Below, one piece after another: positions 10,668 through 26,468 of a DNA stretch of 50,992 nucleotides. The DNA comes from Bacteroidia bacterium (GTDB taxonomy: Bacteria > Bacteroidota > Bacteroidia > UBA7662), in the NCBI GenBank assembly GCA_049317645.1, contig JBMOHV010000002.1:1-50992 (forward strand), given 5' to 3'. The notes beneath the pieces were generated by a model. The model saw nothing but the letters and a program-made list of their open reading frames with translations, was not told the DNA's origin and made no database searches. A program made the position numbers and the translations under genes. How positions within the stretch are numbered: position 1 is the stretch's first letter; each line of letters opens with the position of its first letter.

Positions 10668-11870
10668 TTAGCCGTAGTTCCGACCCTTCCATGTGAATTT
10701 GCCTCGGTAACCAGCCAGACCGGCCCCCAACGTATAGGGCAAATACCATAGCTGCGTCCAAAGCAAAAGACCCCAATGGGCCGACCGCTCGTAAAAGCCG
10801 GCAACTGTACGCGTATAAAGACCATCCATCCATGCCTTGAGGCCCCAGGTCCCCAAAGCCATCGCTACCAGTCCGTATTGGCTTTGCAGCGCGCCACCAA
10901 CGAGCGTTCCCAAGAGGAGGGCATGCATGAACCACACCCCTTTGAGGATGAACGAAACAACCGGATCCGGGTAGGCCCCTTGTTTGGAAATCCAACGGAT
11001 ACGCTGAGCCAAAAAATCCCGAAAAGAACCCAAAGGCGGTGTATCCACCATGGCCTGCCTATCCAAACAAAATGTAAGCGCTGTAGGGCCCCTTAAACGA
11101 CTGAATTGATGCATTAACAAATCATCATCGCCCCCTGGATGTTTCCAATTGCTATCGTAGGGTGCGGTTTCCAAAAAAGCCCCGCGATCAAAAGCCATGT
11201 TACCTCCGTTGGAAATCACCGGACGACCCAAGGCCAAGGTCGATGCCGCAATGGCATTCAAACTCATGAATTCCAGAGCCTGGCTCCTTTCCCAAAGCGT
11301 GTTAGCTGGCGATAACCGAACCGGGCCTGCCACAAAAACCAAGCCCTCCCGGCTCTCGGCTTTGGCAATCATCGTGCGGATCCACCGCGGTCCCGGAACA
11401 CAATCTGCATCCGTTACCAAAACCCAACGACCCCTGGCTTGTTGAACCCCGTAGGCGATGGCTCCCTTTTTGTGAGGAGGGAAGCCGTCGCTCCCGTCCC
11501 GTTCCAAAACACAAAAGGGGGCTTTTGAAAACCGCTCCAAAAAATTTCTTGCCTGTTCCGCTGATTCATCGGTGGATTGATCGTCAATCCATAACAATTC
11601 CCAGACAAAATCAGTCTGCTGCTCCGTCAAGGCGCGTAACAGAGGGCCCATGCGCTGGGTTTCGTTTCGGGCGGCCACCAAGACAGTCACCCAGGGCTGG
11701 GTTCCTTCGGCTTGATGGATCGAACCCCAAGCAAGGCTCCCGGTGAGGTCCGGCCTCGGTCCATGGCCCTCTCCATCGACTGCCTTTTGCCAACCCTTCG
11801 CAAAGAAGACCAGCATGCTTCTGTAAAAAAGCAAAAACACCCCAAAAACCAACCCCAAAAACCAAATCAT
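10668..11870 (-). CDS. Glycosyltransferase family 2, membrane-anchored
   Basis: VTVLVAARNETQRMGPLL, LVTDADC (DXD) and AQRIRWISKQ (QxxRW-like), with TM helices at both ends. ATG 11870 overlaps the upstream gene's stop (ATGA). Confidence 0.75.
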   Translation of the reverse strand: MIWFLGLVFGVFLLFYRSMLVFFAKGWQKAVDGEGHGPRPDLTGSLAWGSIHQAEGTQPWVTVLVAARNETQRMGPLLRALTEQQTDFVWELLWIDDQSTDESAEQARNFLERFSKAPFCVLERDGSDGFPPHKKGAIAYGVQQARGRWVLVTDADCVPGPRWIRTMIAKAESREGLVFVAGPVRLSPANTLWERSQALEFMSLNAIAASTLALGRPVISNGGNMAFDRGAFLETAPYDSNWKHPGGDDDLLMHQFSRLRGPTALTFCLDRQAMVDTPPLGSFRDFLAQRIRWISKQGAYPDPVVSFILKGVWFMHALLLGTLVGGALQSQYGLVAMALGTWGLKAWMDGLYTRTVAGFYERSAHWGLLLWTQLWYLPYTLGAGLAGYRGKFTWKGRNYG

Positions 11871-12904
11871 AGCTCCACCGGTTTCCTTTGACCTCTGAAC
11901 AACCACCACGCACCCCCAACGAGTGCTGGAAATCCAACATTGGTGAACCAAATCAGCCAAGGCACCAACATCGCATGGGTCGGTACCGGAAGCAGAGGGC
12001 CAAAAACAAGAAAAGCGGAGAGGCCCCGCAAACCTAATTCACCCAAGACTCCCAAGGGAGCAAACCAATTCACTGCCAAAACCATGGCCGACAAAAAATA
12101 AACCGAAGCCCCGTCCATTTTTAATCCCAGAAGAGCCAGCCAAAAAGCCCATTGACCCAATAACAACAGATGACGAAGGAAGGACCAGGTCTGCAATGCA
12201 ACCGGAAGATGGTACGTCTGAGCGTAGGCCTGCATTTTCCTAAACATGGCGAGCCATGCCCATCCTGCCATCCATGCCAGTCCACCAAGAGCCACCGAAA
12301 ACCAAGGCGAGTCCAAAGGCGCCCACGACCATTGCATCGCCCATCGAGCCTTGGAAGACGGATCCACCAACCACCAAGCACCCGCCGGCACCAACAAGAC
12401 CCAAACCCATTGGCTTGAAGAGGATAACCAGGTGGAAACCATGACCCTCGGGTGTTGATCCTTTGGATAAAAACGGCAACGGCCGGCAAACTCCGTTAAC
12501 CTAGCGGGAAACCATAACGACCCCAAAATCCCGTAACATAGAATAGGAATATTCTTCCGAACCCTGTTCCACCAAGACCCCTGGAAATCCCCATGCTCCT
12601 GCATCAACAGGCCCCATTTGATCGCATCCACCACCAACCCCAGCAGTGGAAATACGATAACCGCCACCAAAAGACGCCAACCATTGGCCAACCACCACAT
12701 GGATGATCCGATCACCTTAACCACCGCCGGCGCGTCCACCAAGGTCCACGTTCCGGACTTGGACCAAAATTGTACCAACAAAGCAGCCAGACCCAACCAT
12801 GGAACCAGCCCCAGCCCTACAGACCACCACCGGCTTTGGGTCAAACGAACCAAGCCCTCAGGCCACAAAGCCATCCCCTGACTTGGAGCAGTATTTTTGG
12901 TCAT
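11867..12904 (-). CDS. Trp-rich polytopic membrane protein (flippase-like/UPF0104-type suspected)
   Basis: 345 aa, about 8 hydrophobic segments, very Trp-rich. It is translationally coupled to the downstream GT2, an arrangement common for lysyl-PG-synthase-TM-like proteins. The family call is tentative. Confidence 0.4.
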   Translation of the reverse strand: MTKNTAPSQGMALWPEGLVRLTQSRWWSVGLGLVPWLGLAALLVQFWSKSGTWTLVDAPAVVKVIGSSMWWLANGWRLLVAVIVFPLLGLVVDAIKWGLLMQEHGDFQGSWWNRVRKNIPILCYGILGSLWFPARLTEFAGRCRFYPKDQHPRVMVSTWLSSSSQWVWVLLVPAGAWWLVDPSSKARWAMQWSWAPLDSPWFSVALGGLAWMAGWAWLAMFRKMQAYAQTYHLPVALQTWSFLRHLLLLGQWAFWLALLGLKMDGASVYFLSAMVLAVNWFAPLGVLGELGLRGLSAFLVFGPLLPVPTHAMLVPWLIWFTNVGFPALVGGAWWLFRGQRKPVEL

Positions 12905-12918
12905 TCACCACAAAGTAA

Positions 12919-13542
12919 ATGCCCCAAGCACCAACAGCCCGCCCCACCGACAAAGTAATCCTAGGGATTGATCCTGGAACCTTGTTGATGGGCTATGGAA
13001 TCCTGCGCATCCAAGGAAACCGGGTCTCCCTATTGGATGCAGGGCATTGGCGATTTCGCTCCACCGATTCCCATCTGCTAAGGCTAAGCCTCATTTTCAA
13101 ACAAACCCTGGCCCTCATCCAATTGCATCAACCTGATGAATTGGCCATCGAGGCCCCGTTTTTTGCGCAAAATGTTCAATCTCTGATCAAACTAGGCCGG
13201 GCCCAAGGAGCAGCCATTGCCGCGGCCTTGGAACGAGATATCCCCGTTTTTGAATACCTCCCCAAAAAAATCAAACAAGCTGTCACCGGCAACGGCAATG
13301 CTTCCAAACATCAGGTGGCCGCCATGCTAGCCACCCTGCTTCAAACACCCACCGATCACTTCAAAAACGACGCAACGGATGCCCTAGGAGCCGCCTATTG
13401 CCATTTCCTACGAATGAACGACCCGACAACAGCGGGGAATCCAACATCCACCCAAGCAACTAAAACAAAAGGGGGGTCCGGCCCCAAAAAGAAGCAAGCG
13501 TGGGAACAATTTTTGCGCAGCAACCCAGACCGCCAACTTTAA
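12919..13542 (+). CDS. ruvC: Crossover junction endodeoxyribonuclease RuvC
   Basis: ILGIDPGTLLMGYGIL, ELAIEAPFFAQNVQS, KKIKQAVTGNGNASKHQV and NDATDALGAAYCH are catalytic and structural signatures of RuvC. There is a basic C-terminal tail. Confidence 0.9.
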   Translation: MPQAPTARPTDKVILGIDPGTLLMGYGILRIQGNRVSLLDAGHWRFRSTDSHLLRLSLIFKQTLALIQLHQPDELAIEAPFFAQNVQSLIKLGRAQGAAIAAALERDIPVFEYLPKKIKQAVTGNGNASKHQVAAMLATLLQTPTDHFKNDATDALGAAYCHFLRMNDPTTAGNPTSTQATKTKGGSGPKKKQAWEQFLRSNPDRQL

Positions 13543-13593
13543 ACGACCGGATCTGCTTTAAACGATCCTATCCGCATTAAACGTTCGAATCCG
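13537..13593. repeat. Three tandem copies of a 19-bp unit (core TTAAACG)
   Basis: The units are ctttaaacgaccggatctg / ctttaaacgatcctatccg / cattaaacgttcgaatccg; adjacent units share 15/19 positions. The array fills the convergent ruvC/HIT gap. Unit 1 supplies the ruvC stop codon and unit 3 supplies the HIT stop codon. Confidence 0.7.
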
Positions 13594-13972
13594 AGCTCAA
13601 AAAACCCTGGATACGCGCTGCATGCTCCTGCAATTCCTCCGGACTGGGGCGCAACTTGGGACGAGCAAAGGAAAGATCCACTACGTCGTCGATGGGCACC
13701 AAATGAACATGGGCATGCGGTACCTCCAGCCCAATAACCGCCATTCCTACCTTGCGACAAGGAAAGGCCGATTGAATAGCTGGTGCCAATTGACGAACCA
13801 AAGCCCAAACCGCTGTATAATACGGCTCAGGGACTTCGTAAAGCGCATTGACTTCGATTTTGGGTATCACCAAAACATGGCCAAATGCCAAAGGGAAGAT
13901 ATCCAAGAAGGCCAAGGCATGCTCGTTCTCTGCAACAACATGCGCAGGGATCTCCCCACGAACAATCTTCAT
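13577..13972 (-). CDS. HIT-family (histidine triad) nucleotide hydrolase
   Basis: MKIVRGEIPAHVV..., GHVLVIPK and HAHVHLVP (the HxHxHxx triad). The track start at 13987 is a GTG; ATG 13972 gives the usual HIT N-terminus. Confidence 0.85.
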   Translation of the reverse strand: MKIVRGEIPAHVVAENEHALAFLDIFPLAFGHVLVIPKIEVNALYEVPEPYYTAVWALVRQLAPAIQSAFPCRKVGMAVIGLEVPHAHVHLVPIDDVVDLSFARPKLRPSPEELQEHAARIQGFLSSDSNV

Positions 13973-13997
13973 AAAGAGACCTTGCACTTATCCTAAT

Positions 13998-14474
13998 TTA
14001 GATGGTAATTTCCAAAACCTCGAGACGCATCAACCCCGAAGGCACCTGAACCTCAGCAACTTCGCCTACCTTTTTCCCTAACAATCCTTGACCAATCGGT
14101 GAACCAACACTGATTTTACCTGCCTTGAAATCGGCTTCCTTTTCCGAAACCAAGGTGTACTTCATTTCGGCCTGATTGGCCAAATTGCGCAGACGAACCG
14201 TCGTCAGAGGCTGCACTTTACCCGTATCAATTTGGGATTCATCCATAACGCGCGCCGTGGCAAGCGTCTGTTCCAGTCGTGCGATTTGCATTTCCAACAT
14301 ACCCTGAGCATCCTTGGCTGCATCGTATTCTGCATTCTCCGAAAGGTCCCCCTTGTCCCGGGCCTCCTGAATCTGCTTGGCCATATCGGAACGGCCTTTG
14401 GTTTTGAGTTGGTGCAATTCGTCCTTGAGCTTCTCAAGGCCATCGCGGGTAAAAAAAGATAGAGGGAGGCTCAT
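13998..14474 (-). CDS. greA: Transcription elongation factor GreA
   Basis: FTRDGLEKLKDELHQLK...ARDKGDLSENAEYDAAKDAQ (the GreA coiled-coil signature) plus a C-terminal globular domain. The internal ATG at 14474 (MSLPLSFFTRDG) gives the canonical length. Confidence 0.9.
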   Translation of the reverse strand: MSLPLSFFTRDGLEKLKDELHQLKTKGRSDMAKQIQEARDKGDLSENAEYDAAKDAQGMLEMQIARLEQTLATARVMDESQIDTGKVQPLTTVRLRNLANQAEMKYTLVSEKEADFKAGKISVGSPIGQGLLGKKVGEVAEVQVPSGLMRLEVLEITI

Positions 14475-14530
14475 AGCATAAAAATAAAGAACGCCCCTTA
14501 ACGGGGCGTTATTCAAAAATAAATCAAAAA

Positions 14531-15577
14531 TTAAAGACCGTAACGCACACCAAACAAGTGCGTTCCGCCAAAAGGACTGGTTCCCCTGAAGGCGTAGTCA
14601 AATCCAAAATTGGAACCATTGAATGGCGCATCAATGCTGAGACCAAAACTCAAACCTGTATGCACATTTTGGGTAAATTCAGGATCGGAACCCGCATCCT
14701 CGTATTGGTAACCCGCACGGATCGCGGCAATTTTTCCAAATGCGTACTCCGCACCCACCCCGTATTGGTCGTTGGTAAAGGAATTGGAAGTAAAGTTGGC
14801 AGCGACCGTTAAGCGATTCGCCTTCTCGGCATCAAAATAAAAGTCGTAAGATCCCCCAATGTTCATCAAGGAAGGGAGTTCCAGGGTCTGTGAACGCTGG
14901 GACAAGGTCAACGGAACCGTACTACCCTGCATAACACCGCGTGCAGCAAGTCCATCCCCCGTGAAGGAGATAGGTGTGCCAACATTGCGCAAAGCAATAC
15001 CGAACTTGATACGATCATCGGGACCCGTGATGTACTGAATGCCCGCGTCAAAAGCAACACCCGAAGCATTCACATCGGAAGTTCCTTCCGTAACAATACG
15101 CAACGAAGCGCCGCCGTGAATACGATTCGAAAAAGAGCGGGCGTACGATACACCTAGATTAGCAATCGTAGGCTTGAAGGTACCGAGACCACCGTCTGGG
15201 TTGTTGACCGTGGTAATATCAATGGAACCCATGTCAACGCTCATCACCGATACAGCCAAAACACTGGATTCATCCAAGCGCTGAGCCAAACCAAAGGCGT
15301 TCATGTAGATTTCTGAACCACTCAACCAATTGGTCCTGGAAAAATACAATTCGGTTTTGCCACCCAAGGCCAATCCAGCCACATTCAGGCGCTCGGCTTC
15401 GAGGCCCTTGACATTGGCCGAATTGACACCGTACCAACCGGCCTGACGGGCCCATGGCATGATTTGCAACTCGGTTGCACCGGCCTGTCCTCGACGATCC
15501 GGATTACCGGCCAAGGCTTCAAAACTTGCAGCCGAAACCAGCATCAGGGTTCCTAAGCATGCGATACGGAATTTCAT
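14531..15577 (-). CDS. PorV/PorQ-family (FadL-like) outer-membrane protein
   Basis: Signal peptide MKFRIACLGTLMLVSAASFEALA. It is followed by GQAGATELQIMPWARQAGWYGVNSANVKGLEAERLNVAGLA. This fits the PorV-family N-terminal pattern as I remember it (G..GA..L.I....AR..G.GG...A..D..A...NPAGLA). The rest is beta-strand-like and ends in ...FGVRYGL. Confidence 0.6.
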   Translation of the reverse strand: MKFRIACLGTLMLVSAASFEALAGNPDRRGQAGATELQIMPWARQAGWYGVNSANVKGLEAERLNVAGLALGGKTELYFSRTNWLSGSEIYMNAFGLAQRLDESSVLAVSVMSVDMGSIDITTVNNPDGGLGTFKPTIANLGVSYARSFSNRIHGGASLRIVTEGTSDVNASGVAFDAGIQYITGPDDRIKFGIALRNVGTPISFTGDGLAARGVMQGSTVPLTLSQRSQTLELPSLMNIGGSYDFYFDAEKANRLTVAANFTSNSFTNDQYGVGAEYAFGKIAAIRAGYQYEDAGSDPEFTQNVHTGLSFGLSIDAPFNGSNFGFDYAFRGTSPFGGTHLFGVRYGL

Positions 15578-15618
15578 AGTCATCACCACGTCTTAATTTG
15601 GGTTTCGGTTAAAGTCGT

Positions 15619-18600
15619 TTAGAAAGTATCCAGATCCACCGGACGAAGTACGCCAAACCACTTCACGGTTTTCTCGCCGATACCGGGAGCATCCACGTGA
15701 ATTAGGTACGAACCGCTGGCAATTGGCACTTTATTTTGGTTCAACAAATCCCAATCCAGATAGGTAGCGGTCGCGTCGTCTTTGCGCAATGTCCGGATGA
15801 GGTTTCCGTTGAGAGTATAAATACGGACCGTACACTTGGTTGGCAAGTTGGTGATTTTGACACGGTTATCAATCTGGCTCACCTCGTAATTGGAAGCGCC
15901 GTAGTATGGATTGGGAACGACCCGAATCAAATCAAGAGCCGACTTGGCCACATCAAGGACCTTCTTGCGGGGAGCAATGCTACGCAGATTCACCAAGTAA
16001 TGAGGGTTCCCCTTGTTGATACCAGCCGTATCCGTAACATATTTGGAATACTTGCGCGATATCCGGATTTTGGCGGTGTAATCGTTATCCAAGAAGGTCT
16101 TGCCAGGACGGAGTAGTGGCACCGAGGTGTACAGAACGCCGTTGTAGAACAAACGAAAATCAGTCAGGGTCATGGCCTTGGGGTTGTTAACCGGCGAGGC
16201 GACACCTACTTGCCTGTTCAACTGACGCCAGGTGACATCCGCCTGATCGTAGCGGGAATTCATCACATAGATGAAGTGCCTGCCGCCCATGGGCACCCGG
16301 AAATTCTGACCACTCACGGAGAAGAATGAATCCGTTGGGTTCCATTTCATATCACCGTGCGGGTGACCGGCAATGGATGAATAACGGCTATCCTCACCGA
16401 AAGAAATATTCAATCGTTCGCCGGTTTCCAAATTGATGGCGTATCCTGGGAACCAAGACAAACCATTGCGCGAATCCCCATCGGGATTGCCTTCCTTGTC
16501 AACCGAAGGCGCAACGCGAAGGCGATTACGCAATTGACGGCCTTGGGCAAGGAGTGAATCTTCGCAGGTCTCGATAACACAGGCGCGGGTCCACTTGGAC
16601 TTGTCTTTGGTAATCACCACATCGACCGAAGCTAATTTGTCAATTTTGAAATAAGAAAAACGAACCTCGGGATTCAGCGCGCCGACGCCGGCAACACCGG
16701 GCAAGAAATTCCAAAGTCCTGGCCACCATGCAGCTGGCGCTGCATAAAGCATAGGGGACCAAGTACCACCGCGAACTTGCGGATTGGCACCTTGGCCTGT
16801 CCACTCATCTTCAGCGATGTTTTCAAAGAAACGCTGTGGATCTCCGGGGGGTATCAAACCTGCAGGATTCTGAGGCGTCGAATCCGAGCGAGGTGTTCCA
16901 CTACGAATCCAGTCAAAAATTTCGAGACGCTCATCGTCCGGTAGGAAGGAGAGCCAAGAATTTTGAGGGTTTTGGTATTGGAAGGTGGAGAATAGAACCC
17001 CATTTCCGCCGGCTGGATCATCTCCGGGATTCTTGGAATTACGAATCGTTGCGCTCAAACCAATACGCTTGAAGACGGCAGTGGTTTCGTAGTATCCCAA
17101 AATTTGTTCATTCCCCGCTACCAAAACCGTATCGGAGTAAATGGTATCCAAGGCAGCTGAACCGGTATCCCCCAAGACAACATACCAACGGCCTTGATCG
17201 TCCACGGTTGTGGCCGAACCTGGCGTTCCCTTGTACATGAACAAACGCATATCGGCCTCCGGCACGGCGGTTGGATCAATGACCTTGAGGTTGATTGGCG
17301 CGGCATTTTTCTTGTAAAGCGGCGTGGGCATAAATCCGTTTTCCAGAATAGTCAACACGTCCATGCTATCAATTTCAATGATATTGCCGCCGTTGCCGAT
17401 TCCTTCCATACGGCGAACTTCGGGTTGATCGCCGTAAACGCTGTTCAGGACTAGACCATCAAAGGTGGGCTCTGACTTGTGCGGAATACCTGTGTAGGTT
17501 TTGACATTGTTACGGCCTGGCAAATAAGGCTTCTGCTGACCGGTATCCGTTACGATATCGTAGCGAGCATAATTGTTATAACCGTAGGCAATGACCGTGT
17601 AGTAATACTTTTTGAAGTTCACCAACTGATCGGAGCCTTCGGCAAACGCATCCCTGTTGATTTTGAGGGTCATATTAACCCCTTTGTTGGTGCCGTTCAC
17701 GGCCAGGAAGGGTACAGACTGTTCCAGTTCAGCATCAAATACCCAGTTGATAATCCGGTCGACTGAATTTTGGATATCCCCCTGATAAACCATTCGAGCC
17801 TTGGACTGGTCATCCAATTCGCCGGTACTCACATTGGAAGCGGACAACTGGTAAACTTTGAAGCCTTCGAACTTATAAACCGAATCGTAAGGCGCTTGGC
17901 CGGGAGGTCTGTTATCATTCAGTGCCTTGATGACAGGATCCAATTCACGGTAACCCAAACGGTAATTATTGCTCGTTGGCTTGTAGGAGAAAGTAAGAAT
18001 TAACTCCTGATCAAGTTCGGTGATATCAACATCCGGAGCGTCAGGGCCATCGATGGTTTTGAAACAGTTATCAAACAAAGCCTGGGACTTGGAGTCGGCC
18101 TTTAACAACAAATTGAAAGAACCTCTGGCACCTCCTGATGAAGCCCGCGCCCAAACAACACCGATGGTAACATAATTGACGGCACCCGGTTGCAGCGTGA
18201 AGGGACCGGCCGACTGTACAAAACGACGGTCTGCAGGTACGTTGGGATTCGCGCCAGGGCCCGGTGCATTTTCGCTCCAATCAAACGGTGTCGCGATGGG
18301 ATTCTGACACGATCCACCGACACCCCAACCGTATTGACGGTCGGATCCGCCGGGGAACATAAGACCGCTGTTGATGGTGGGTTGTGAACCACCCGAGCCG
18401 GGGTAACCATTCCCCCCGTAAACCATGCGGGTATTGTCCCTCCAACGGCCCACCATGTAGTTGTAGGCATTCTCGGCTGTTGTTGGGTTTCCGTTGGGCT
18501 GACCATCGTTGTTGAAATACAAGAACTTAGCCATGATAATCCGCTCGGTACGTGGCTCAGGATCGCAACCACCCGCTACAAATTCATCCACCGTGCAATC

Positions 18601-19650
18601 CCGGTCGTTGTCAACTCCGTCCATGGGGTCTGCAAAAGGACCCTCAAAAAAGTCGATTCCAATGGAAGGAGGGTTTGCGCCGTAACCTTGAATACCCTCG
18701 TCGTCGTCGTCACCGTTGTAACAAATACCCAAACCTCGGGGTACATCGCAACCAACAAAGTCGTCGGTGTAATTGCCCAAATCAGGGTCCGCCCATTGCG
18801 CCATAAAGCAGGAATCCAGTCGAATGGAGGAGCGGTTAATGATCTTGTTGTAATAAAAGGTCATGTTGTTCAACTCATCGTTGGACTGGTAACCAAACGC
18901 CTGGGTTTGAATTTCCATCCCGATGGGCGTCGAACCCGAACCCGGGGTATTCCCCTTATCGTTGGTCACAAACCAAATACTCTGATCCCCGTAAATAAAA
19001 GGATAGTCCCCTCCATCGGGGGTGTAGGAACCATTACCGTCGGCATCCACGTAGGGGGCCATGTTCGGATCCTGCCCAGCAGTCAAATCACCGCTGACAG
19101 GCCATTCCCGAATAACTTGGGGAATCACATAATTGGGGTCAGCCGTCGAAATCGCGTTGATATGGTCTTGGACCTGACGACGATTCAGCTTCCAATGTTT
19201 GTCCCAGATCTTGCACTGGTCGTTGGTAATAGTCGCATCCACCAAAGACAAAGGACCCGCCCACCAGCCGGCACCCAGAACCGTCGCCTGACGATAGGTC
19301 TGGGCGGCAATTTTGAGCAGACCGTTGGCATCAATCCCCCCTACCCAAACCGAACCCGCAAAGAGCGAATGCTTTTTGGGGGCCGTTGGATCATCCAACT
19401 TGGGAATTTCGTAGCGAGCGTTACCGCTTCCACCCTGGTCCCACCAATAGTCATTACCGCGCAGAATCATGGCCCGAACATTGTTAATGTCCAAGTTGAC
19501 CCTGGAAGCGGGAGGGTTGCAAGTGGCTGCAACCCGTGCAATAAACTTACGGGCATCTCCCTCGGCCCTTGTGGGAACATTGAGAGCTTCCCGAGCCTCG
19601 GCACCCCATAGGCAGGTCATTAGACAGGTGACTAAAAGAATTCGCTTCAT
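15619..19650 (-). CDS. 1343-aa secreted protein with a T9SS C-terminal sorting domain; family unknown
   Basis: Signal peptide MKRILLVTCLMTCLWGAEA. The last ~95 aa (VVPNPYYGASNY...KCTVRIYTLNGNLIRTL...ASGSYLIHVDAPG...KTVKWFGVL) fit the type-A Por_Secre_tail pattern. Asp-rich segments are present (DGVDNDRDCTVDE, YNGDDDDEG). I see no catalytic motif I can name. Confidence 0.7.
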   Translation of the reverse strand: MKRILLVTCLMTCLWGAEAREALNVPTRAEGDARKFIARVAATCNPPASRVNLDINNVRAMILRGNDYWWDQGGSGNARYEIPKLDDPTAPKKHSLFAGSVWVGGIDANGLLKIAAQTYRQATVLGAGWWAGPLSLVDATITNDQCKIWDKHWKLNRRQVQDHINAISTADPNYVIPQVIREWPVSGDLTAGQDPNMAPYVDADGNGSYTPDGGDYPFIYGDQSIWFVTNDKGNTPGSGSTPIGMEIQTQAFGYQSNDELNNMTFYYNKIINRSSIRLDSCFMAQWADPDLGNYTDDFVGCDVPRGLGICYNGDDDDEGIQGYGANPPSIGIDFFEGPFADPMDGVDNDRDCTVDEFVAGGCDPEPRTERIIMAKFLYFNNDGQPNGNPTTAENAYNYMVGRWRDNTRMVYGGNGYPGSGGSQPTINSGLMFPGGSDRQYGWGVGGSCQNPIATPFDWSENAPGPGANPNVPADRRFVQSAGPFTLQPGAVNYVTIGVVWARASSGGARGSFNLLLKADSKSQALFDNCFKTIDGPDAPDVDITELDQELILTFSYKPTSNNYRLGYRELDPVIKALNDNRPPGQAPYDSVYKFEGFKVYQLSASNVSTGELDDQSKARMVYQGDIQNSVDRIINWVFDAELEQSVPFLAVNGTNKGVNMTLKINRDAFAEGSDQLVNFKKYYYTVIAYGYNNYARYDIVTDTGQQKPYLPGRNNVKTYTGIPHKSEPTFDGLVLNSVYGDQPEVRRMEGIGNGGNIIEIDSMDVLTILENGFMPTPLYKKNAAPINLKVIDPTAVPEADMRLFMYKGTPGSATTVDDQGRWYVVLGDTGSAALDTIYSDTVLVAGNEQILGYYETTAVFKRIGLSATIRNSKNPGDDPAGGNGVLFSTFQYQNPQNSWLSFLPDDERLEIFDWIRSGTPRSDSTPQNPAGLIPPGDPQRFFENIAEDEWTGQGANPQVRGGTWSPMLYAAPAAWWPGLWNFLPGVAGVGALNPEVRFSYFKIDKLASVDVVITKDKSKWTRACVIETCEDSLLAQGRQLRNRLRVAPSVDKEGNPDGDSRNGLSWFPGYAINLETGERLNISFGEDSRYSSIAGHPHGDMKWNPTDSFFSVSGQNFRVPMGGRHFIYVMNSRYDQADVTWRQLNRQVGVASPVNNPKAMTLTDFRLFYNGVLYTSVPLLRPGKTFLDNDYTAKIRISRKYSKYVTDTAGINKGNPHYLVNLRSIAPRKKVLDVAKSALDLIRVVPNPYYGASNYEVSQIDNRVKITNLPTKCTVRIYTLNGNLIRTLRKDDATATYLDWDLLNQNKVPIASGSYLIHVDAPGIGEKTVKWFGVLRPVDLDTF

Positions 19651-19703
19651 AGCTGCTTGATTTCTATAAGAGGATGGTTCTAAAAAAGGAGGCGATTGGG
19701 GAA

Positions 19704-22700
19704 TTAGAAATTAAGACGAACGCCCAAACGAGTACGACGTGGTAAAGAGAAGTTCCCGGGATCGGCCATGGAAGCCCGGTACAAATCGTTGAAGGCCTGA
19801 CGATTGATAACAGAAGCCAGCTGCTGAGCGCCTAGGCTGCTAGTCAAGTATCCATCGTCGGTGGGGTCGCCGGTGAATTGATAAACACCGGTGATGTTAC
19901 GGTTATCAAAGAGGTTGATAATCTGCAGATAGACGTTGACAGAGGCTTCGCGGGGTTTGCCATCTGCTTTGCGGCCCATGGTAAAATTGAAATCCTTGTC
20001 TACACGGAAGTTCATACGGAACTGCCATGGCAGACGTGAACCATTAATACCACCCTTGAGGGTCGTACGGCCGGTCAATCCACCAGCGGCATCACCATCG
20101 GGGGTCACAATGGTCTGACGAGAATACGGTGTACCGGAAATCGCATTGGCTACAAAGTTGAAACCGACGCCTTCGAACAACCCAAAACCACCAATTCGGG
20201 GGCCGTCATAGGTTTTTCCCGTTCCAAAGCGGTAGTCCAAATTGGCCACCAAACGATGACGAGCATCAAAACTCAATGGAATGGGGGTACGCAAATTGTC
20301 GATACCGGCCTGGATAATGTTGGCGGCCTGGTCGGGAGCCGAACCGGTACCATCGGCAAACTGCAGGGTATAACTGGCGTTGAGTCGAACATTACCGGTA
20401 CGACGCAAGTCGTAAGTCAATGTCAATCCCTTCACCGTACCAAAATCAATGTTTCCGTAGGTCTGGTAATCCGCTGGGAATGCAAAGGGCACGTTAATGA
20501 TTTGGATCATGTTCCGAAGTTCACGATAGAAAGCAGCGATGGTCAACGCGGATGTCTTGTTGAGGCGTTGCTTGAAACCCAATTGGTAATCAATGGTGCG
20601 CTCTGGTTGTAGGTTGGGATTGTTAATGGTACCACCAACCTGCCGTAGGAAATAATATTGACGGGGGTCAAAACGGCTAAACGCGCTTGGGCGCTGTGTT
20701 AGTACATCGTAGTGGGCAAAGAATTGGGCCTCATCGGAAATAGGGAACGAGAAGGCAACACGAGGCATCCAATTCACCTGGGGTGTATAGTCCGTGAAGG
20801 CATCGGCCCGTACGGCAATCTGGTTCGGATCCTTGAGCCAAGGAATGACCGTACCCGTTGCAGAGGCTGCAGCAATACCCGAAGCATTCCGGATTTCAGC
20901 GCCTTGGGCATTGTACCAACGGTTTCCGTTCCGGTAGCCCAGGATCGCCTTGTTGGCCGCATTGTTATCGTTGATATAAACAACAGCCGAACCAGGAACA
21001 ACGGATGGATGACTTAGGCCGGCCGTATTGGGATCGGCCTCGAGATCGTTGATGGTTTTGGCGGTGTACAACAAAAAGGGATCCTGTAGAACGGGCTGGT
21101 TGGCGTCAAAACGGTCCACCCTCAATCCAACACGGAATACCAAGTCATCAAAGTCAAACTTGTCCTCGATATAACCGGCAGTATAAACCGGGGCAAAGGC
21201 TGCAATGGGGCGGTTCAAAGAATCGGTGAAAAAGTCCAAGCGGCCAGGCTGATTGGACAATTTGTTACCGAGGTAATCATACCCGAAATAGCTCACAAAA
21301 GAATTACCCGAATTCAACAATTCATCTGCGGAGAAATAACTCAACTTGAGCTGGTCCGGATTCAAATCGTCAATTTGGATGAAGTCACTGGCACCACGGC
21401 CCAAAGAGGCCCGGAGGTTTTTGTCAAACATGGATTGATTGGACGCAATCAACCGATTCCATAACACCGTGTCGCTGAGAGGGAATCCAAAGGAGTCCAC
21501 ATCGACAATCGGGTTCCAAGGCTTGTCAAAATCCAAAATGTGTTGGTTGGTGAGAGAGCGCGCTTGGCCCCACAAACCAATGGTGCTTGCAAAAGGATTC
21601 AGGCTGTAAGAGCGATCGATTCGCTGATCGTATTCAAAACCAAACTTGAGAGAATGACCTCCAATATCCGCCGACGAAAAGAGTGTCATCCGGTAGGCAT
21701 CGTTGTCGTTGAACGAATAACCTCCGATTTGACGACCCGACTCGTTCCATATACCGTACGCAGTGCCTGGGCGTAGGCCATTGGTCAGACCACCGTTGAG
21801 GCGAACATCCGAAAGACCGTTGATGCCCACATTGGTCGCTGTTAGGAAGCCATCTGCATTGGTGCTACCACCGATGGTATTAAAAAAATCAATGCCCCAA
21901 TTGGCCAACAAGGGATCAATCCCCAAGGCCCAGGTTTTGTCGTAAACCAAGTTGCCTTCCCGATAACCTTGCAAAGAAGTCAATTCAAATTCGACGGTAT
22001 CGCCTGCAATCAGGAAAGGAACGGATTCGGTCCCAAATTGGGGGGTCAAATCGTAACGAAAACGCCCAACATACCCGTAATTAAAAGGGTTACGGCCCAA
22101 GGCGTCTCCGCCGTTGGTGGAACCCTTTGATTTGGTATAATCGAACTGAACCTGGTAGTAAGCATTGCGAATGAGTCCGTCCTGCTTTTGGTCAGCTGAA
22201 GCAAAATTCTGGCGAAAACGTGCATAACCGCGGATGGTCTGGTTCTCGTTGTTCCCCATGTTGTCGGGGTTCATCATCGAATAAGCGCGGGTATAGGCCT
22301 TGCCCCAGGTGCGGTCGTAGTTTCCACCCACCGTCATCGAAACACTGGTACTGGGTTGAAAGTCCACTTTGCCCGCAACGGAAACACGGTTCCGGTTGGC
22401 ATTGGGACGGACCCGAATCAGCTCGTATTGGTCTTCCGTTACAAACTCGGAATTCCGTTGAATCCCGGTTCCAAAGATGGAGGGACGGTAAGGGTCGGCC
22501 TGCAAAGCGGACAATTTATCCGGAGTCATTGTGTACAGACCAATGGCCGAAGGCGAGGCATCCACCTGGGTTTCGGCTTCACCGGAAAGGAAAAAGCCCA
22601 GGATGGACTTTTTGGTTTTGGCGTCTACCTGCTTGGTAATCAATGGACCCGAAAAATTGAGGGCAAAAAGATTGTAGCCGTAGGGCTCTAGGATTTTGGC

Positions 22701-23426
22701 CGAACTCAATACTTCAGCTCCTCCAAAATAGGTGCTGGAAGGACCGCGGGTTGTGATGTTGATAATACCACCGGTGGCGTCCCCGTATTGGGCAGGAATA
22801 CCACCCGTGATAACGGTGGTCTGTTCAATGGCCGCGTTGGGCAGGTTGGTGGAACCCCGAACACGGATACCGTCAATAAAGTATTCGGTGCTGGAAGACC
22901 TGGAACCGCGGATGTTCAAGGCCCCTCCTTCGTCCGCCTGGAATACACCGGCGGTGGTGGCTGCAATCGAGTTCACATCCCGGGTTGGCAGGGCCGCAAT
23001 TTCTTCGCGGGTTACCGTACCCCCCGTTGATGTTTCATCCTTGGAAATCAAGGGAACCTCGTAATCAACGACGTTGATTTCGCCTAGGTTCACACCGGAT
23101 GACATCTTAATGTCCAAAAACTGGCTACGGTCCGCCGTGATCACCAAGCCCCGAACAACCTCGGAATTGTAACCTACGTAACTGACCTTGATATCGTATT
23201 TGCCCGGTGTAAGGGCGCCAAATTTGTACTTTCCGTCAATGTCGGTGGTTGTTCCGCCCTTCTGGACGCCATCCTTTTCGATAATAACGTTGGCAAAGGG
23301 AATACCTTCCTTGGGCTTGAGGGCATCGACCACTTTACCCTGGACCGAACCGCTACCGGCCTGCCCCCAAGCGGAGGCAGAATACAAACCAAATAACAAG
23401 AGAGCGATGTACCTTTTCAACTGCAT
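19704..23426 (-). CDS. Oar-like giant TonB-dependent outer-membrane barrel (CarboxypepD_reg + plug + barrel)
   Basis: Signal peptide MQLKRYIALLLFGLYSASAWGQ. A carboxypeptidase-regulatory-like domain (GKVVD...IPFANVII...TDIDGKYKFGALTPGKYDIKVSYVGY). A plug (TREEIAALPTRDVNSIAATTAGV...ALNIRGSRSSSTEYFIDGIRV). A terminal ...RTRLGVRLNF. Confidence 0.8.
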   Translation of the reverse strand: MQLKRYIALLLFGLYSASAWGQAGSGSVQGKVVDALKPKEGIPFANVIIEKDGVQKGGTTTDIDGKYKFGALTPGKYDIKVSYVGYNSEVVRGLVITADRSQFLDIKMSSGVNLGEINVVDYEVPLISKDETSTGGTVTREEIAALPTRDVNSIAATTAGVFQADEGGALNIRGSRSSSTEYFIDGIRVRGSTNLPNAAIEQTTVITGGIPAQYGDATGGIINITTRGPSSTYFGGAEVLSSAKILEPYGYNLFALNFSGPLITKQVDAKTKKSILGFFLSGEAETQVDASPSAIGLYTMTPDKLSALQADPYRPSIFGTGIQRNSEFVTEDQYELIRVRPNANRNRVSVAGKVDFQPSTSVSMTVGGNYDRTWGKAYTRAYSMMNPDNMGNNENQTIRGYARFRQNFASADQKQDGLIRNAYYQVQFDYTKSKGSTNGGDALGRNPFNYGYVGRFRYDLTPQFGTESVPFLIAGDTVEFELTSLQGYREGNLVYDKTWALGIDPLLANWGIDFFNTIGGSTNADGFLTATNVGINGLSDVRLNGGLTNGLRPGTAYGIWNESGRQIGGYSFNDNDAYRMTLFSSADIGGHSLKFGFEYDQRIDRSYSLNPFASTIGLWGQARSLTNQHILDFDKPWNPIVDVDSFGFPLSDTVLWNRLIASNQSMFDKNLRASLGRGASDFIQIDDLNPDQLKLSYFSADELLNSGNSFVSYFGYDYLGNKLSNQPGRLDFFTDSLNRPIAAFAPVYTAGYIEDKFDFDDLVFRVGLRVDRFDANQPVLQDPFLLYTAKTINDLEADPNTAGLSHPSVVPGSAVVYINDNNAANKAILGYRNGNRWYNAQGAEIRNASGIAAASATGTVIPWLKDPNQIAVRADAFTDYTPQVNWMPRVAFSFPISDEAQFFAHYDVLTQRPSAFSRFDPRQYYFLRQVGGTINNPNLQPERTIDYQLGFKQRLNKTSALTIAAFYRELRNMIQIINVPFAFPADYQTYGNIDFGTVKGLTLTYDLRRTGNVRLNASYTLQFADGTGSAPDQAANIIQAGIDNLRTPIPLSFDARHRLVANLDYRFGTGKTYDGPRIGGFGLFEGVGFNFVANAISGTPYSRQTIVTPDGDAAGGLTGRTTLKGGINGSRLPWQFRMNFRVDKDFNFTMGRKADGKPREASVNVYLQIINLFDNRNITGVYQFTGDPTDDGYLTSSLGAQQLASVINRQAFNDLYRASMADPGNFSLPRRTRLGVRLNF

Positions 23427-23627
23427 ATGCTTTATTTTGAAGGCTGTAGTTCAATATTAGGGGCGAGATGGCCAAAATTCAACCATCCCAAAAAGGGATT
23501 AAAACACGAACTTAGGCACAAATCAAAGAATTTTGGCCCAATTGGTCATCTAAATTTAACTTTTGAAGGACCACAACCCCCTGCCAAGCCCTCTCCCCAC
23601 TTTGCCTCCAAGACCCCTGTATCTACG

Positions 23628-24608
23628 ATGATGCCCCCCAACCAAACCCCATCTCTCCTGCAAATCCTGGGCACCCGTTTACCCCTCATCCAAGCCGGAA
23701 TGATATGGTGCAGTGGCTGGGAATTGGCCTCCGCGGTCAGCATGGCCGGCGGCCTGGGCACCCTCGGGGCCGGATCCATGCGCCCCGAAGAGCTTAGGAG
23801 GCAGCTGGAACGCATGCAGGAGGTCTGCGATCGGCCTTTTGCGGTGAATCTGCCCCTTTTGTACCCTCAAATTGAGGAACACCTGGGTCTTTTGGCCGAA
23901 TTCCAGGTTCCGGTGGTGATTACTTCGGCCGGTAGCCCCTCCAAATGGACCTCCTACCTCCATGAAAAGGGCTGCAAAGTCCTTCATGTGGTGTCCAGCA
24001 CCCGCTTTGCCGTCAAAGCCCAAGAGGCAGGGGTGGACGCCGTCATTGCCGAAGGCTTTGAGGCGGGGGGGCACAACGGCCGTGAAGAAACCACGACCCT
24101 CTGCCTCGTACCGGCCGTGCGCAATGCCATCGATGTACCGTTGGTGGCGGCCGGTGGAATCGGTAGCGGCGAGGCGATTGCAGCAGCGCTGATGCTGGGA
24201 GCCGATGGAGTCCAAATCGGATCTCGCTACGTGGCAACCCCGGAATCTTCGGCCCATCCCTTGTTCAAGGCCAAGGTTCTAAGCGCCCGTGAAGGGGATA
24301 CGCATTTGGCGCTCAAGGGTTTGACCCCTGTAAGGCTGTTGGATAATCCTTTTGCACGCCATGTCAAAGAAGCCGAAACCCGGGGCGATGGGCTCGAAGA
24401 CCTCCGAGAACTGCTCGGGCGGGGTCGGGCCAAGAAAGGCATGTTTGAGGGGGACCTCGAAGAGGGAGAATTGGAAATTGGCCAGGTTTCGGCCCATTTG
24501 GACGAACTAATACCAGCCGGGGCCCTGACGAACCAGCTTTGGGAAGAAGCCCTGCAGCGGTTGGAAACCCTGTCCCAACTCCAAGTCCTGCGCCGGAACC
24601 TATCCTAA
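23628..24608 (+). CDS. NAD(P)H-dependent flavin oxidoreductase (nitronate monooxygenase / FabK-like)
   Basis: LPLIQAGMIWCSGWELASAVSMAGGLGTLGAG, AEGFEAGGHNG and VAAGGIGSGEAIAAALMLGADGVQIGSRY are NMO/2-nitropropane dioxygenase signatures. The real start is taken as ATG 23628 (MMPPNQ...); the track ORF starts 201 nt further upstream. Confidence 0.8.
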   Translation: MMPPNQTPSLLQILGTRLPLIQAGMIWCSGWELASAVSMAGGLGTLGAGSMRPEELRRQLERMQEVCDRPFAVNLPLLYPQIEEHLGLLAEFQVPVVITSAGSPSKWTSYLHEKGCKVLHVVSSTRFAVKAQEAGVDAVIAEGFEAGGHNGREETTTLCLVPAVRNAIDVPLVAAGGIGSGEAIAAALMLGADGVQIGSRYVATPESSAHPLFKAKVLSAREGDTHLALKGLTPVRLLDNPFARHVKEAETRGDGLEDLRELLGRGRAKKGMFEGDLEEGELEIGQVSAHLDELIPAGALTNQLWEEALQRLETLSQLQVLRRNLS

Positions 24609-24641: not shown

Positions 24642-26468
24642 TCAGGAACCATCGGGACTTCGGTCTCCCCTGATTTTGCGTATCCGTTTTCGAGCCTCTG
24701 GTACAAAGGCCGATTCTGGATATTTTAACATTAGTTTTTCGTACAAATCACGGGCTCTTTGGGAATCTCCCAAATGGGTTTCCCACAAGCCACCTCGCCG
24801 AAGGCAGGCATCGTCCGCCCAGACCTCGTCCCCAAAATTCGCCAAGACCGATCCGTAGGCCGAATCGGCTTCGACATAGCGACCCAAGCGCTCCAGCAAG
24901 CTGGCTCTGCGCATGTACAAATCGTCGCCCAAGGTATGGCCCCGCAGCGTGTCTAACAAACTATCAGAGATGGCCAAAGCGCGCTCGTATTCGCGGCGAA
25001 ACACCAGACGATCCAGGAGCGCCAAACCCTGCAGTGGCAAAGTGCTGGTATCCAAATCATAATGGTCGTGAATATTGATTGACCAAGCCATGGCGTCGTT
25101 GGCCATCCGCGTTGTCGTACTCCCCTTGAGCACATCAAATTGGGCCAGCGACCAAGCAAACTCGTGTTCAAAAAACGATAGCCTGGCGTTGCGGAATTTG
25201 GCCTGATGACCCAGAGGCTGGTTGGGAAAATCACGCTCAACCTGGCCGTAAACCAACGCCGCTTCCCAATAAATTTCGTCCAACAAATAAAGATCTCCTA
25301 ACAACAGCTTTAGTTCCCCCAAAGCCTGCGATTCTCCCCCTTGTTGTATAATTTGTTCCAACAAATCCATAGCTTCTTCGTTCCTCCCCAAATCAAAGGC
25401 CAGCAACTCGGCATAGCCCGAAGCAATGCGCAGGCGATTGGCCGAGGGTTGGGGTTGTCCCAGAAGGGCCTGATAGGCCTGGGCCAGGACCGTCATGGAA
25501 TCGCGTTGGATCTGGGGCTCAGCCCGGAGAAGATGGGCGCAGACCCGAAGCTTCTCGGTTTGGGCCTCGAGGCCCATCAGCGTCCCCGCCGCTTGCTCCC
25601 CTACATAGTCCAGCATCGGTAGGCAGGCCTTCCAGTCTTCGTTTTCGATCGCCACCCTGGCCAGGTTCAAGACCCGGCGTCCCTTTTCGCGAAGCCGCAG
25701 ATCCAAAGCGCGGGCGTGGGGGAAGGCCTCGGCAAAATCCTTTTGTTGCACCAAGTACCAAACCAACAATTCCCCCCAAATCCACTCATCAGGGACCTGG
25801 CGTAGTCGCCGGATGAGCGACGTCCGAAGACCATCCATTTCGTCGGCCTCCAGTTTTTGTTGGAGGCTGTATTGAACCGTCTCAAGGGCTTCGGGTTGTG
25901 CCTGCAGATAATCCAGGTAATGCTCGATCATAGCGGCCTTTTGACCTGAACCATAGGCCAAATCAGCCAATTCCATGGCAAAGGCCGCGGGATTCCCCGC
26001 CATAACACGGCCGCGTTGGTAGGTTTTTTCGGCCCATTCGTTCTCAGCACGGACCCGAAAGGCCCCGGCCAAGATCATAATTTGATTGGGTTCCCCGCTG
26101 CATTGGTTAATCAGCCCCTCAAAAAGCCGGACCGCCTCCTCGGTACGGCCCCGCAATCGCATCGCATGGCCCCGATCCACATCGTAATGCACCGATCCCT
26201 TCCAACGGCGCCCCGTCTTGTAAGCCAATTTCTCGGCCTCCTCCCAGGCTTTGCTCTGCAACAAAGAGGCATAACTGTAAGCGTAGGCCGTGGAATACCA
26301 TTCGGGATGGGTCAAAAAAGGCTCCAAAACCCGAAGACAGGACTCCCACTCTTGTTTTTGAAAATGCTGAACCCCGATTTGAATTTCGGCTGGCTGAAGG
26401 CTTTGGGCCTGCAGGGGCTGACCCACCCCCATCAGCAACATCAGGGCACAAATCAAAACGAATTTCAT
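24642..26468 (-). CDS. Secreted tetratricopeptide-repeat (TPR) protein
   Basis: Signal peptide MKFVLICALMLLMGVGQPLQAQ, then helical repeats rich in A/L/Y/W...A..Y spacing. The track ORF runs on to 26891, but that part is antisense to radA and is not protein-like. Confidence 0.65.
   Translation of the reverse strand: MKFVLICALMLLMGVGQPLQAQSLQPAEIQIGVQHFQKQEWESCLRVLEPFLTHPEWYSTAYAYSYASLLQSKAWEEAEKLAYKTGRRWKGSVHYDVDRGHAMRLRGRTEEAVRLFEGLINQCSGEPNQIMILAGAFRVRAENEWAEKTYQRGRVMAGNPAAFAMELADLAYGSGQKAAMIEHYLDYLQAQPEALETVQYSLQQKLEADEMDGLRTSLIRRLRQVPDEWIWGELLVWYLVQQKDFAEAFPHARALDLRLREKGRRVLNLARVAIENEDWKACLPMLDYVGEQAAGTLMGLEAQTEKLRVCAHLLRAEPQIQRDSMTVLAQAYQALLGQPQPSANRLRIASGYAELLAFDLGRNEEAMDLLEQIIQQGGESQALGELKLLLGDLYLLDEIYWEAALVYGQVERDFPNQPLGHQAKFRNARLSFFEHEFAWSLAQFDVLKGSTTTRMANDAMAWSINIHDHYDLDTSTLPLQGLALLDRLVFRREYERALAISDSLLDTLRGHTLGDDLYMRRASLLERLGRYVEADSAYGSVLANFGDEVWADDACLRRGGLWETHLGDSQRARDLYEKLMLKYPESAFVPEARKRIRKIRGDRSPDGS

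Follow-up and report, generated by a model that had tools for sequence, protein, structure and literature searches.

A conserved cluster of a TonB-dependent transporter, a large putative T9SS cargo and a PorV/PorQ-family barrel in Bacteroidota

Three consecutive minus-strand genes lie in a window of 50,992 nucleotides (the whole stretch of DNA that was analysed) from the Bacteroidia bacterium contig JBMOHV010000002.1. They encode, in order of transcription, a TonB-dependent transporter, a 1343-aa secreted protein referred to here as the cargo, and an outer-membrane barrel of the PorV/PorQ family (Table 1). The gaps between them are 53 bp (19651-19703) between transporter and cargo and 29 bp (15590-15618) between cargo and barrel, and the spacing given in an earlier note on this DNA was thus confirmed by the open reading frame coordinates. 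The one, trivial, correction concerns the barrel gene, for which 348 aa and a 29 bp gap had been given together: the gap belongs to a GTG start at 15589 and a product of 352 aa, whereas a product of 348 aa needs the ATG at 15577 and leaves 41 bp. Signal-peptide-like N-termini can be read from the translations of all three proteins.

Table 1. Features of the three-gene cluster and its flanking DNA (window coordinates)
Feature	Coordinates	Strand	Basis
TonB-dependent transporter gene, 1240 aa	19704..23426	-	Pfam matches, AF2 model, Foldseek
1343-aa secreted beta-rich protein gene (cargo), uncharacterised family	15619..19650	-	Homologue searches, AF2 model
PorV/PorQ-family outer-membrane barrel gene	14531..15589	-	NF033709 match, orthologue loci
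Intrinsic-terminator-like hairpin, 8-bp stem with 6 G-C pairs, then CTTTATTTTT	14480..14510	-	Consensus match only
AT-rich divergent intergenic region, about 204 bp, upstream of the transporter gene	23427..23630	.	Sequence read
T9SS-type C-terminal sorting domain of the cargo, residues about 1237-1343, with a conserved extension ending ...RPxDLDTF	15622..15942	-	PorZ-model match
CarboxypepD_reg domain of the transporter, residues 27-108	23103..23348	-	PF13620 55.1 bits, PF13715 48.4 bits
TonB-box-like segment of the transporter, EINVVDYEVPLISKD, residues 116-130	23037..23081	-	Between N-terminal domain and plug

The layout is operon-like, and the trio is predicted to form one operon because of the short gaps, the common strand, the terminator-like hairpin after the third gene and the AT-rich region upstream of the first. 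That hairpin lies 20 nt past the stop codon of the barrel gene, between the trio and greA, and nothing within the trio stands out as terminator-like; an operon of the trio together with greA was rejected for this window because of the hairpin. The upstream intergenic region is likely to be the promoter region of the trio, and the ATG at 23631 is the probable start of the adjacent fabK-like gene, since NMO/FabK homology begins only at residue 77 of the long reading frame. No T9SS core genes were found within the 51-kb window, and the source organism is presumed to have a T9SS on the strength of its phylum and of homologue annotations.

The transporter consists of a signal peptide, a CarboxypepD_reg domain, a TonB-box-like segment, a plug and a 22-strand barrel, with about 450 extra residues held in its loops. 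The architecture read from the sequence in the earlier note, a TonB-dependent-type barrel with a CarboxypepD_reg domain, agrees with Pfam scores of 55 bits for CarboxypepD_reg, 43.1 for Plug (cut-off 23.9) and 49.7 for TonB_dep_Rec_b-barrel (cut-off 27), all of which exceed the Pfam cut-offs, and with the fold model. AF2 predicted residues 120-1240 as a plug within a 22-strand barrel (pLDDT 87, pTM 0.85), and the best Foldseek matches of the model were classical TonB-dependent transporters (E about 1e-25, TMt 0.6-0.8), including the importers Cir, PfeA, XusA and BtuB, with HasR also among the best. Pfam, AF2 and Foldseek all place the protein among the TonB-dependent transporters with plug and 22-strand barrel, and its orthologues are all 1210-1285 aa long. 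Residues 116-130 are a putative TonB box, judged by their position and their beta-strand-like pattern of V and I; the segment is kept in 74 orthologues with the consensus E-V-E-V-V-D-Y-K-V-P-L-I-D-K-D.

The transporter had also been called Oar-like rather than SusC-like, with no SusD following it. The negative part of that description stood, as the SusC/RagA models (TIGR04056/04057) were absent among the NCBIfam matches of the transporter and the genes downstream encode the cargo and the barrel, not a SusD. The term Oar-like draws only on the order of domains, which in Oar is CarboxypepD_reg, plug and barrel, and it is unspecific because SusC-type transporters have the same order; a CarboxypepD_reg-type N-terminal domain is common to them and to the transporter described here. 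Neither the transporter nor 120 of its orthologues matched an Oar-specific or PorF-specific family, the matches being to the generic barrel family only.

The cargo belongs to a large family, with more than 4500 homologues at E<1e-5 and 2201 clusters at 50% identity (E<=1e-30). Named cultured organisms from the homologue-cluster look-ups were only Catalinimonas alkaloidigena and a Cryomorphaceae genome. The body of the protein, previously said to resemble no recognisable family, had no match in Pfam or NCBIfam and no sequence match in the PDB, and fold searches bore this out. AF2 predicted residues 40-1239 as all-beta (pLDDT 85), and in Foldseek searches of PDB and BFVD the model gave only weak matches, to supersandwich and FN3 domains, at a TMq of about 0.15. 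The supersandwich matches are of the kind found at the N-termini of GH15, GH65, GH94 and GH116 enzymes. No catalytic domain was found by Pfam and NCBIfam searches of 14 members, by a PDB sequence profile or by Foldseek against PDB and BFVD, and the matches were weak; the possibility that the cargo is a known enzyme was rejected on these grounds, there being no confident match to an enzyme or other family by sequence or by fold. An all-beta body in which no catalytic core was found is more in keeping with binding than with enzymatic activity. The cargo has no lipobox. Two further identities were considered and rejected. The cargo is not a PorZ homologue, since with the PorZ model it reaches 30 bits (cut-off 260) in the region of the C-terminal domain only, and a canonical porU-porV pair was rejected because Peptidase_C25 and PorU gave no match and the barrel falls short of the PorV equivalog. 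Foldseek likewise returned no propeller or peptidase fold for the cargo body.

The C-terminus of the cargo appears to be a type-A T9SS domain that has diverged, its nearest counterpart being the domain that PorZ retains. The domain part of the PorZ model aligned with residues 1237-1330 at E 1.5e-7, and FlgD_ig gave a faint match (E 0.08). The suggestion in the earlier note that the last ~95 aa fit a type-A sorting domain held for the family, nine of the 14 full-length homologues matching TIGR04183 (best E 4e-5) and three of the 14 matching PF18962, but the protein in the window was itself matched by neither model at E<=0.01. Conservation within the cargo is highest in the C-terminal domain (0.52-0.67 against a mean of 0.41), the extra C-terminal tail is also conserved, and so is the domain in cargo paralogues found outside the trio. 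Such high conservation would be unexpected if the signal were discarded, although constraints imposed by the translocon could be an alternative cause.

The third gene encodes a member of the PorV/PorQ family, as had been proposed from its N-terminal motif: it scored 144.5 bits with NF033709 (cut-off 90) over residues 37-350 of 352. It is neither of the canonical members, scoring 58.2 bits with the PorV equivalog NF033710 (cut-off 250; residues 30-212 only), 22.6 with Pfam PorV (cut-off 27) and 69.1 bits with the PorQ equivalog NF033711 (cut-off 220; full-length alignment). Its orthologues are linked to the trio cluster only, which together with the failed PorV model speaks against its being simply the canonical porV of the genome. 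The scores point to a distinct PorV/PorQ subfamily dedicated to this cluster.

Gene neighbourhoods were compared from both ends of the cluster. When searches were anchored on the cargo, transporter, cargo and barrel occurred in the same order in about 70 of the 80 genome loci; these loci showed 36-89% identity and came from Bacteroidales, Flavobacteriales, Chitinophagales, Sphingobacteriales and Cytophagales. When they were anchored on the barrel, the cargo lay directly upstream in 75/75 metagenome loci with room for it, and wherever a metagenome locus offered more than 5.2 kb the transporter was there too, without exception. The recurrence of the trio order is more than chance, and the synteny is very strong in both directions. 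Flanking genes are lost more often than the trio, ruvC being present in 37/80 loci and GT2 in 27/80. With the failure of the canonical PorV and PorQ models, these results support the idea, put forward in the earlier note, that the trio is fixed and has a PorV paralogue private to it. Some 10% of the cargo homologues have no barrel beside them, and the neighbours of these orphans (peptidases, TPR and MORN proteins) are unrelated; these copies look like paralogues, and their existence means that adjacency of the trio is not obligatory. Full-text literature searches found no description of the trio, and no paper on the 1343-aa family.

Distance matrices for 52 taxa were used to compare divergence within the trio. 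The partial correlation of the cargo C-terminal domain was 0.34 with the barrel and 0.19 with the transporter, and that of the cargo body 0.62 with the transporter and 0.10 with the barrel, values in which shared phylogeny and protein length act as confounders, long proteins giving less noisy distances. They hint weakly that divergence of the C-terminal domain tracks the barrel and that divergence of the body tracks the transporter.

Several known systems resemble part of the trio. In the PorZ-PorQ and PorU-PorV pairs of Porphyromonas gingivalis and Flavobacterium johnsoniae a surface protein with a type-A-like domain is likewise paired with a barrel of the PorV/PorQ family. PorZ keeps its C-terminal domain and binds PorQ (PMC10202324), and the 14-strand barrels of this family are thought to hold the uncleaved domain of their paired cargo (PMC10202324, PMC7463736). 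However, the trio barrel scores below the cut-offs of the PorV and PorQ equivalogs, the cargo body has neither the beta-propeller of PorZ nor the C25 peptidase signal of PorU, and the T9SS attachment complex is without a TonB-dependent transporter, whereas the trio has one as a fixed third partner. The PorP/SprF barrels (SprB-SprF; Fjoh_1677) are similar in that the cargo gene adjoins a dedicated barrel that decides the final location of the cargo (PMC12618676). Those pairs employ type-B domains, while the trio has a type-A-like domain, a PorV/PorQ-family barrel and a transporter in addition; type-A domains are stated to be recognised by PorV in every case (PMC12618676). In the Bacteroides BAM, the co-encoded FadL/PorV-related barrel of BamG-BamH holds a large surface protein by its extracellular loops (PMC12578637), but that pair docks on BamA and its surface protein, BamH, is a lipoprotein, whereas the partner here has a T9SS-type domain and the third component is a TonB-dependent transporter, not an Omp85 protein. 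The trio as part of the Bacteroidota BAM complex (BamG/BamH, BamP; PMC12578637, PMC12611786) was rejected, as it has no Omp85 partner and a sorting domain in place of a lipoprotein.

From the side of the transporter, the nearest parallels are SusC-SusD, RagA-RagB, BtuB-BtuG, XusA-XusB and HasR-HasA, in all of which the gene for a plugged 22-strand transporter adjoins that of a partner, surface-exposed or secreted, which captures the substrate. The partners known in Bacteroidota are surface-flipped lipoproteins, and HasA is a T1SS hemophore; by contrast, the candidate partner here is a 1343-aa protein that lacks a lipobox and has a T9SS-type signal and a putative anchor barrel of its own. Oar of Myxococcus xanthus and PorF (PG0534) are also TonB-type outer-membrane barrels, and are implicated in protein secretion (PMC6434023, PMC8564354). 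Unlike them the trio includes a cargo with its own T9SS-type signal, the comparison with Oar and PorF having been made by family models. The attachment of cargo by its C-terminal domain to a cognate barrel is thus a known principle (PorU-PorV, PorZ-PorQ, and type-B domains with PorP/SprF; PMC10202324, PMC12618676), and the trio is a new combination of known parts, not a wholly new kind of system.

The reading preferred here, to which a probability of roughly 0.42 is given, is that the cargo is delivered by the T9SS, docks through a retained C-terminal domain on its own barrel and serves as a surface partner of the transporter. All three products would cross the inner membrane by Sec, after which the cargo would be carried to the surface by the T9SS. 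Its C-terminal domain may remain uncleaved, as proposed from its closeness to the PorZ domain, its position as the most conserved region and the conserved tail, and could then dock the protein non-covalently on the PorV/PorQ-family barrel in the manner of PorZ/PorQ and PorU/PorV. The beta-sandwich body would lie over or beside the co-encoded transporter, possibly in contact with it, as an extracellular capture or lid partner for a substrate that may be a glycan or another large molecule, and the transporter would presumably import this substrate with TonB energy. The role of importer with a surface partner is suggested by the closeness of its fold to XusA, whose partner is the surface lipoprotein XusB, and HasR, which works with HasA. 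A bolder version, which must be considered doubtful, is that of a widespread machine of a new type. In it a barrel energised by TonB would be coupled mechanically to a protein that the T9SS delivers and that sits, by its C-terminal domain, on a third, dedicated class of PorV/PorQ barrel; such a machine would be either a lid, built by the T9SS, for TonB-dependent import or a surface device powered by TonB.

It is unlikely, if still deserving of weight, that the cluster instead holds two co-transcribed units, cargo and barrel forming an adhesin or coat pair and the transporter an ordinary importer that does not bind them, with the order kept as an ancient, co-regulated block. Synteny can be inherited, since greA, HIT, ruvC and GT2 are also syntenic across orders with no obvious functional link, and the fold of the transporter is that of a classical import protein; orphan cargo paralogues, moreover, have no adjoining transporter. 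Against this, no barrel-anchored locus with room lacks the transporter, which sits 53 bp upstream on the same strand, with no terminator-like site standing out in the trio. Losses are much more frequent among the flanking genes than in the trio (ruvC and GT2, as above), and cargo-body distances track the transporter far better than the barrel or greA. Decidedly less probable is an export or assembly route, corresponding to the cargo-specific secretion or anchoring route of the earlier note, where the TonB-type barrel, alone or together with the small one, would be needed to secrete, fold or position the cargo. The precedents are that Oar is required for PopC secretion in Myxococcus (PMC6434023), that the TonB-dependent-receptor-like PorF (PG0534) is needed for gingipain secretion, and that PorV of C. 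hutchinsonii co-purified with a PorF-related TonB-dependent receptor (PMC8564354); the tight linkage of the three genes would also be accommodated. However, a cargo that already has a T9SS-type signal makes a second exporter needless, and passage of a folded, beta-rich protein of 1300 aa through a plugged 22-strand barrel is implausible. PG0534 is moreover without a Plug domain (PMC8564354) whereas the transporter here has one, and no match to an Oar-specific or PorF-specific family was obtained.

An envelope-biogenesis module, for example a second unit resembling the attachment complex that handles LPS or a surface glycan, with a glycan-binding body displayed by the PorZ-like C-terminal domain on the PorQ-like barrel and the transporter-like barrel as a platform, appears very unlikely, although a number of features are in its favour. 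The conservation of the trio is housekeeping-like, its identity of about 40% across orders and its greA, HIT and ruvC neighbours being unlike variable nutrient-uptake loci. LPS genes (LptF/G, a GT9 heptosyltransferase, a Wzy_C ligase-like gene and GT2) occur near the trio in the window and in related loci, but they are outside the transcription unit and variably present. The cargo body shows weak similarity to the supersandwich fold, which is often carbohydrate-binding. The C-terminal domain is nearest to that of PorZ and the barrel nearest to PorQ, and PorZ delivers A-LPS (PMC10202324); the cargo body is nevertheless unlike PorZ, the 30 bits (cut-off 260) coming from the C-terminal-domain region only, and there is no precedent for a plugged TonB-dependent transporter in the handling of LPS.

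A family of about 2,200 clusters, whose body has no Pfam model or solved structure, is therefore found in a predicted operon with two outer-membrane barrels across five distant orders, and the trio looks like an unstudied surface machine of Bacteroidota. If the reading of the cargo as a docked surface partner of the transporter is true, the trio would provide a third cognate pair of cargo and barrel for type-A-like domains, beyond PorU-PorV and PorZ-PorQ, and a tractable system for how some C-terminal domains escape cleavage. The bolder version would in addition widen the current rule, under which PorV alone receives type-A domains, and would give transporters a T9SS route by which to gain surface partners. 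Bacteroidota dominate gut, soil and aquatic communities, and a conserved uptake or surface module would thus bear on their physiology.

The transporter, the large protein and the small barrel of the PorV/PorQ type were found to form a cluster of fixed order. A sample of 80 genome loci anchored on the large protein (36-89% identity to it) covered Bacteroidales, Flavobacteriales, Chitinophagales, Sphingobacteriales and Lentimicrobiaceae, and in ~70 of them its gene was flanked immediately by the transporter upstream and the barrel downstream, all on one strand, with greA and a HIT gene next in most. The same block occurs in the cultured Catalinimonas alkaloidigena and a complete Cryomorphaceae genome. 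A second sample, anchored on the small barrel (80 metagenome loci, 46-99% identity), had the large-protein gene directly upstream in 75/75 loci with upstream room and the transporter in every locus with >5.2 kb of room, an association without exception that marks this barrel subfamily as dedicated to the cluster. The earlier note's claim of a fixed trio is thus supported by both samples. Three trio loci lie in MAGs labelled Sphingomonadales, Omnitrophica and Bifidobacterium, most likely because these bins are mislabelled or contaminated and not because the trio truly exists beyond Bacteroidota.

The three adjacent genes are present as open reading frames with the gaps of 53 and 29 bp originally described, and all three products have signal-peptide-like N-termini. 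The 348 aa first given for the small barrel hold for a start at ATG 15577, but the 29-bp gap goes with the longer GTG form. The flanks are housekeeping genes, with greA, the HIT gene and ruvC downstream and a divergent FabK/NMO-like gene upstream. Homology of the latter begins only at residue 77 of the called ORF, so its real start is probably the ATG at 23631; the first ~68 codons would then be untranslated, leaving ~204 bp of AT-rich DNA upstream of the transporter. Because a terminator-like hairpin follows the third stop codon, the trio looks from its sequence like a transcription unit of its own.

Features of the trio and its surroundings in the window
Feature	Position	Strand	Remarks
LPS and envelope gene run	852-11960		LptF/G permease, GT4, GT2, DUF6588, GT9 heptosyltransferase, ORF without family, Wzy_C O-antigen-ligase-like gene, OppC-like permease, another GT2
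DUF6588 gene	4768-5964	-	
Wzy_C O-antigen-ligase-like gene	8282-9814		
Barrel-to-GT2 block	9804-15589		
ORF without family	11867-12904	-	345 aa
greA	13998-14516		downstream of trio
Terminator-like hairpin	14510-14490		20 nt past small-barrel stop codon; 8-bp stem, 6 G-C pairs, then T-run
Small barrel	14531-15589	-	352 aa from GTG start
Large protein (cargo)	15619-19650	-	1343 aa
Transporter	19704-23426	-	1240 aa
FabK/NMO-like ORF as mechanically called	23427-24608	+	start flush against transporter start codon
TPR-repeat protein	24642-26891	-	749 aa
TPP riboswitch plus second receptor	39673-42364	+	
Second TonB-type receptor ORF	39803-42364	+	CarboxypepD_reg + Plug

The transporter carries CarboxypepD_reg, Plug and TonB barrel domains, each over the Pfam cut-off, and the top fold matches of its AF2 model (residues 120-1240; pLDDT 87, pTM 0.85) are the classical 22-strand import transporters Cir, PfeA, XusA, BtuB and HasR (E about 1e-25, TMt 0.6-0.8). 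Neither a SusC/RagA signature nor any Oar-specific family was matched by it or by 120 orthologues; 'Oar-like' therefore holds for domain order only. The segment between N-terminal domain and plug, EINVVDYEVPLISKD in the window protein, is kept in 74 orthologues (consensus E-V-E-V-V-D-Y-K-V-P-L-I-D-K-D) and, lying at the expected site, is a putative TonB box.

The body of the large protein had been said to belong to no recognised family, and it indeed gave no Pfam or NCBIfam match, even when 14 diverse members were scanned at E<=0.1, and no sequence relative in the PDB. Its AF2 model (residues 40-1239; pLDDT 85, pTM 0.68) is nearly all beta, and Foldseek returned weak matches only (TMq about 0.15), to FN3 domains and to supersandwich domains like those N-terminal in GH15, GH65, GH94 and GH116 enzymes, with no catalytic core found by this comparison. 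The family is large, with >4,500 homologues at E<1e-5 among scored candidates and, in a library of 1.84 billion representatives, 2,201 clusters at 50% identity at E<=1e-30 and 7,082 at E<=1e-3; full-length identity across orders is ~40%, and source names are just 'hypothetical' or 'T9SS C-terminal target domain-containing protein'. The type-A sorting domain proposed for it is less distinct than the earlier note suggested: the end of the protein aligns with the C-terminal-domain stretch of the PorZ model (E 1.5e-7) and 9/14 homologues match TIGR04183, but the window protein itself does not. This domain (1241-1343) closes with a conserved extension (...KWFGVxRPxDLDTF) and is better conserved than any other part of the cargo, at 0.52-0.67 identity to the window residue vs a mean of 0.41, a degree of conservation unexpected for a cleaved, discarded signal. 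It resembles in this the retained domains of PorZ and PorU, which bind PorQ and PorV (PMC10202324, PMC7463736).

The small barrel passed the PorV/PorQ family model (144.5 bits vs 90) and fell below the equivalog cut-offs for PorV (58 vs 250 bits) and PorQ (69 vs 220 bits), which together with the synteny supports the suggestion of a private paralogue.

The LPS and envelope run places the trio on the border of a region of envelope-biogenesis genes in this uncultured freshwater-type Bacteroidota MAG. A block of barrel, greA, HIT, ruvC, a ~330-aa ORF without family and GT2 is syntenic in the window, Catalinimonas (Cytophagales; 13339-18283) and the Cryomorphaceae genome (Flavobacteriales; 12840-17555); within the fetched flanks ruvC was present in 37/80 and GT2 in 27/80 genome loci. 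The 345-aa ORF of the window gave no Pfam or NCBIfam match. Both genomes have an ORF of similar size at this position, but tblastn found the window sequence in 1/80 loci only, so the gene either evolves fast or is unrelated. With the TTG start listed for it, the GT2 ORF would overlap this gene by 94 nt, and that start is therefore probably wrong. The TPR-repeat protein just past the FabK-like gene, whose C-terminal repeats are weakly YbgF/BamD-like, is conserved beside the trio in the nearest relatives alone (three loci). Elsewhere, a TPP riboswitch (RF00059, 62 bits) lies 29 nt upstream of the second receptor ORF, whose product is probably an outer-membrane transporter under thiamine control.

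Transporters with surface partners are established (SusCD, XusAB, BtuBG, HasR-HasA), as is the gripping of cargo by a cognate PorV-like barrel (PorU-PorV, PorZ-PorQ, type-B cargo with PorP/SprF). According to PMC12618676, type-A domains all go to PorV. In the Bacteroides BAM complex a FadL-type barrel grips a surface protein (PMC12578637). The partner in the trio is predicted to be delivered by T9SS and is no lipoprotein; full-text literature searches found no description of all three elements in fixed combination.

Pairwise distance matrices from 52 taxa, controlled for greA and the other components, gave the cargo body a partial r of 0.62 with the transporter and 0.10 with the barrel, and the C-terminal domain 0.34 with the barrel and 0.19 with the transporter, values for which common phylogeny and the less noisy distances of long proteins are confounders. 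They weakly fit a pair of interfaces, one joining C-terminal domain and barrel and the other joining body and transporter. A functional separation of the transporter from the cargo-barrel pair, with co-transcription as their only link, is unlikely, though the strongest of the rivals; less probable still is a role of the transporter in secretion or assembly, as for Oar or PorF (PMC6434023, PMC8564354). The PorZ/PorQ affinities of the trio's parts and the nearby LPS genes suggest an LPS- or glycan-related module resembling the attachment complex, a reading that seems improbable.

The preferred reading, given a probability of about 0.4, is that Sec would take all three products over the inner membrane, the large protein would cross the outer membrane by T9SS, its retained C-terminal domain would be gripped by the private barrel, and its beta-sandwich body would act outside the cell as the transporter's capture or lid partner. 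Of the dedicated surface complex envisaged in the earlier note, the fixed trio and private barrel are supported by synteny and family models, while complex and mechanism are proposals. Orphan cargo copies among unrelated genes in eight loci look like paralogues: one (L021, 7860-11885) shares 67% identity with the copy in the trio of the same MAG (L010), and four of Crocinitomicaceae/Cryomorphaceae type (L060, L062, L068, L078) form their own group. In a further locus (L041, 2084-12152), a second copy has come to lie between greA and HIT. All these copies keep the same conserved C-terminal domain, and the cargo paralogues may therefore share one anchor barrel.
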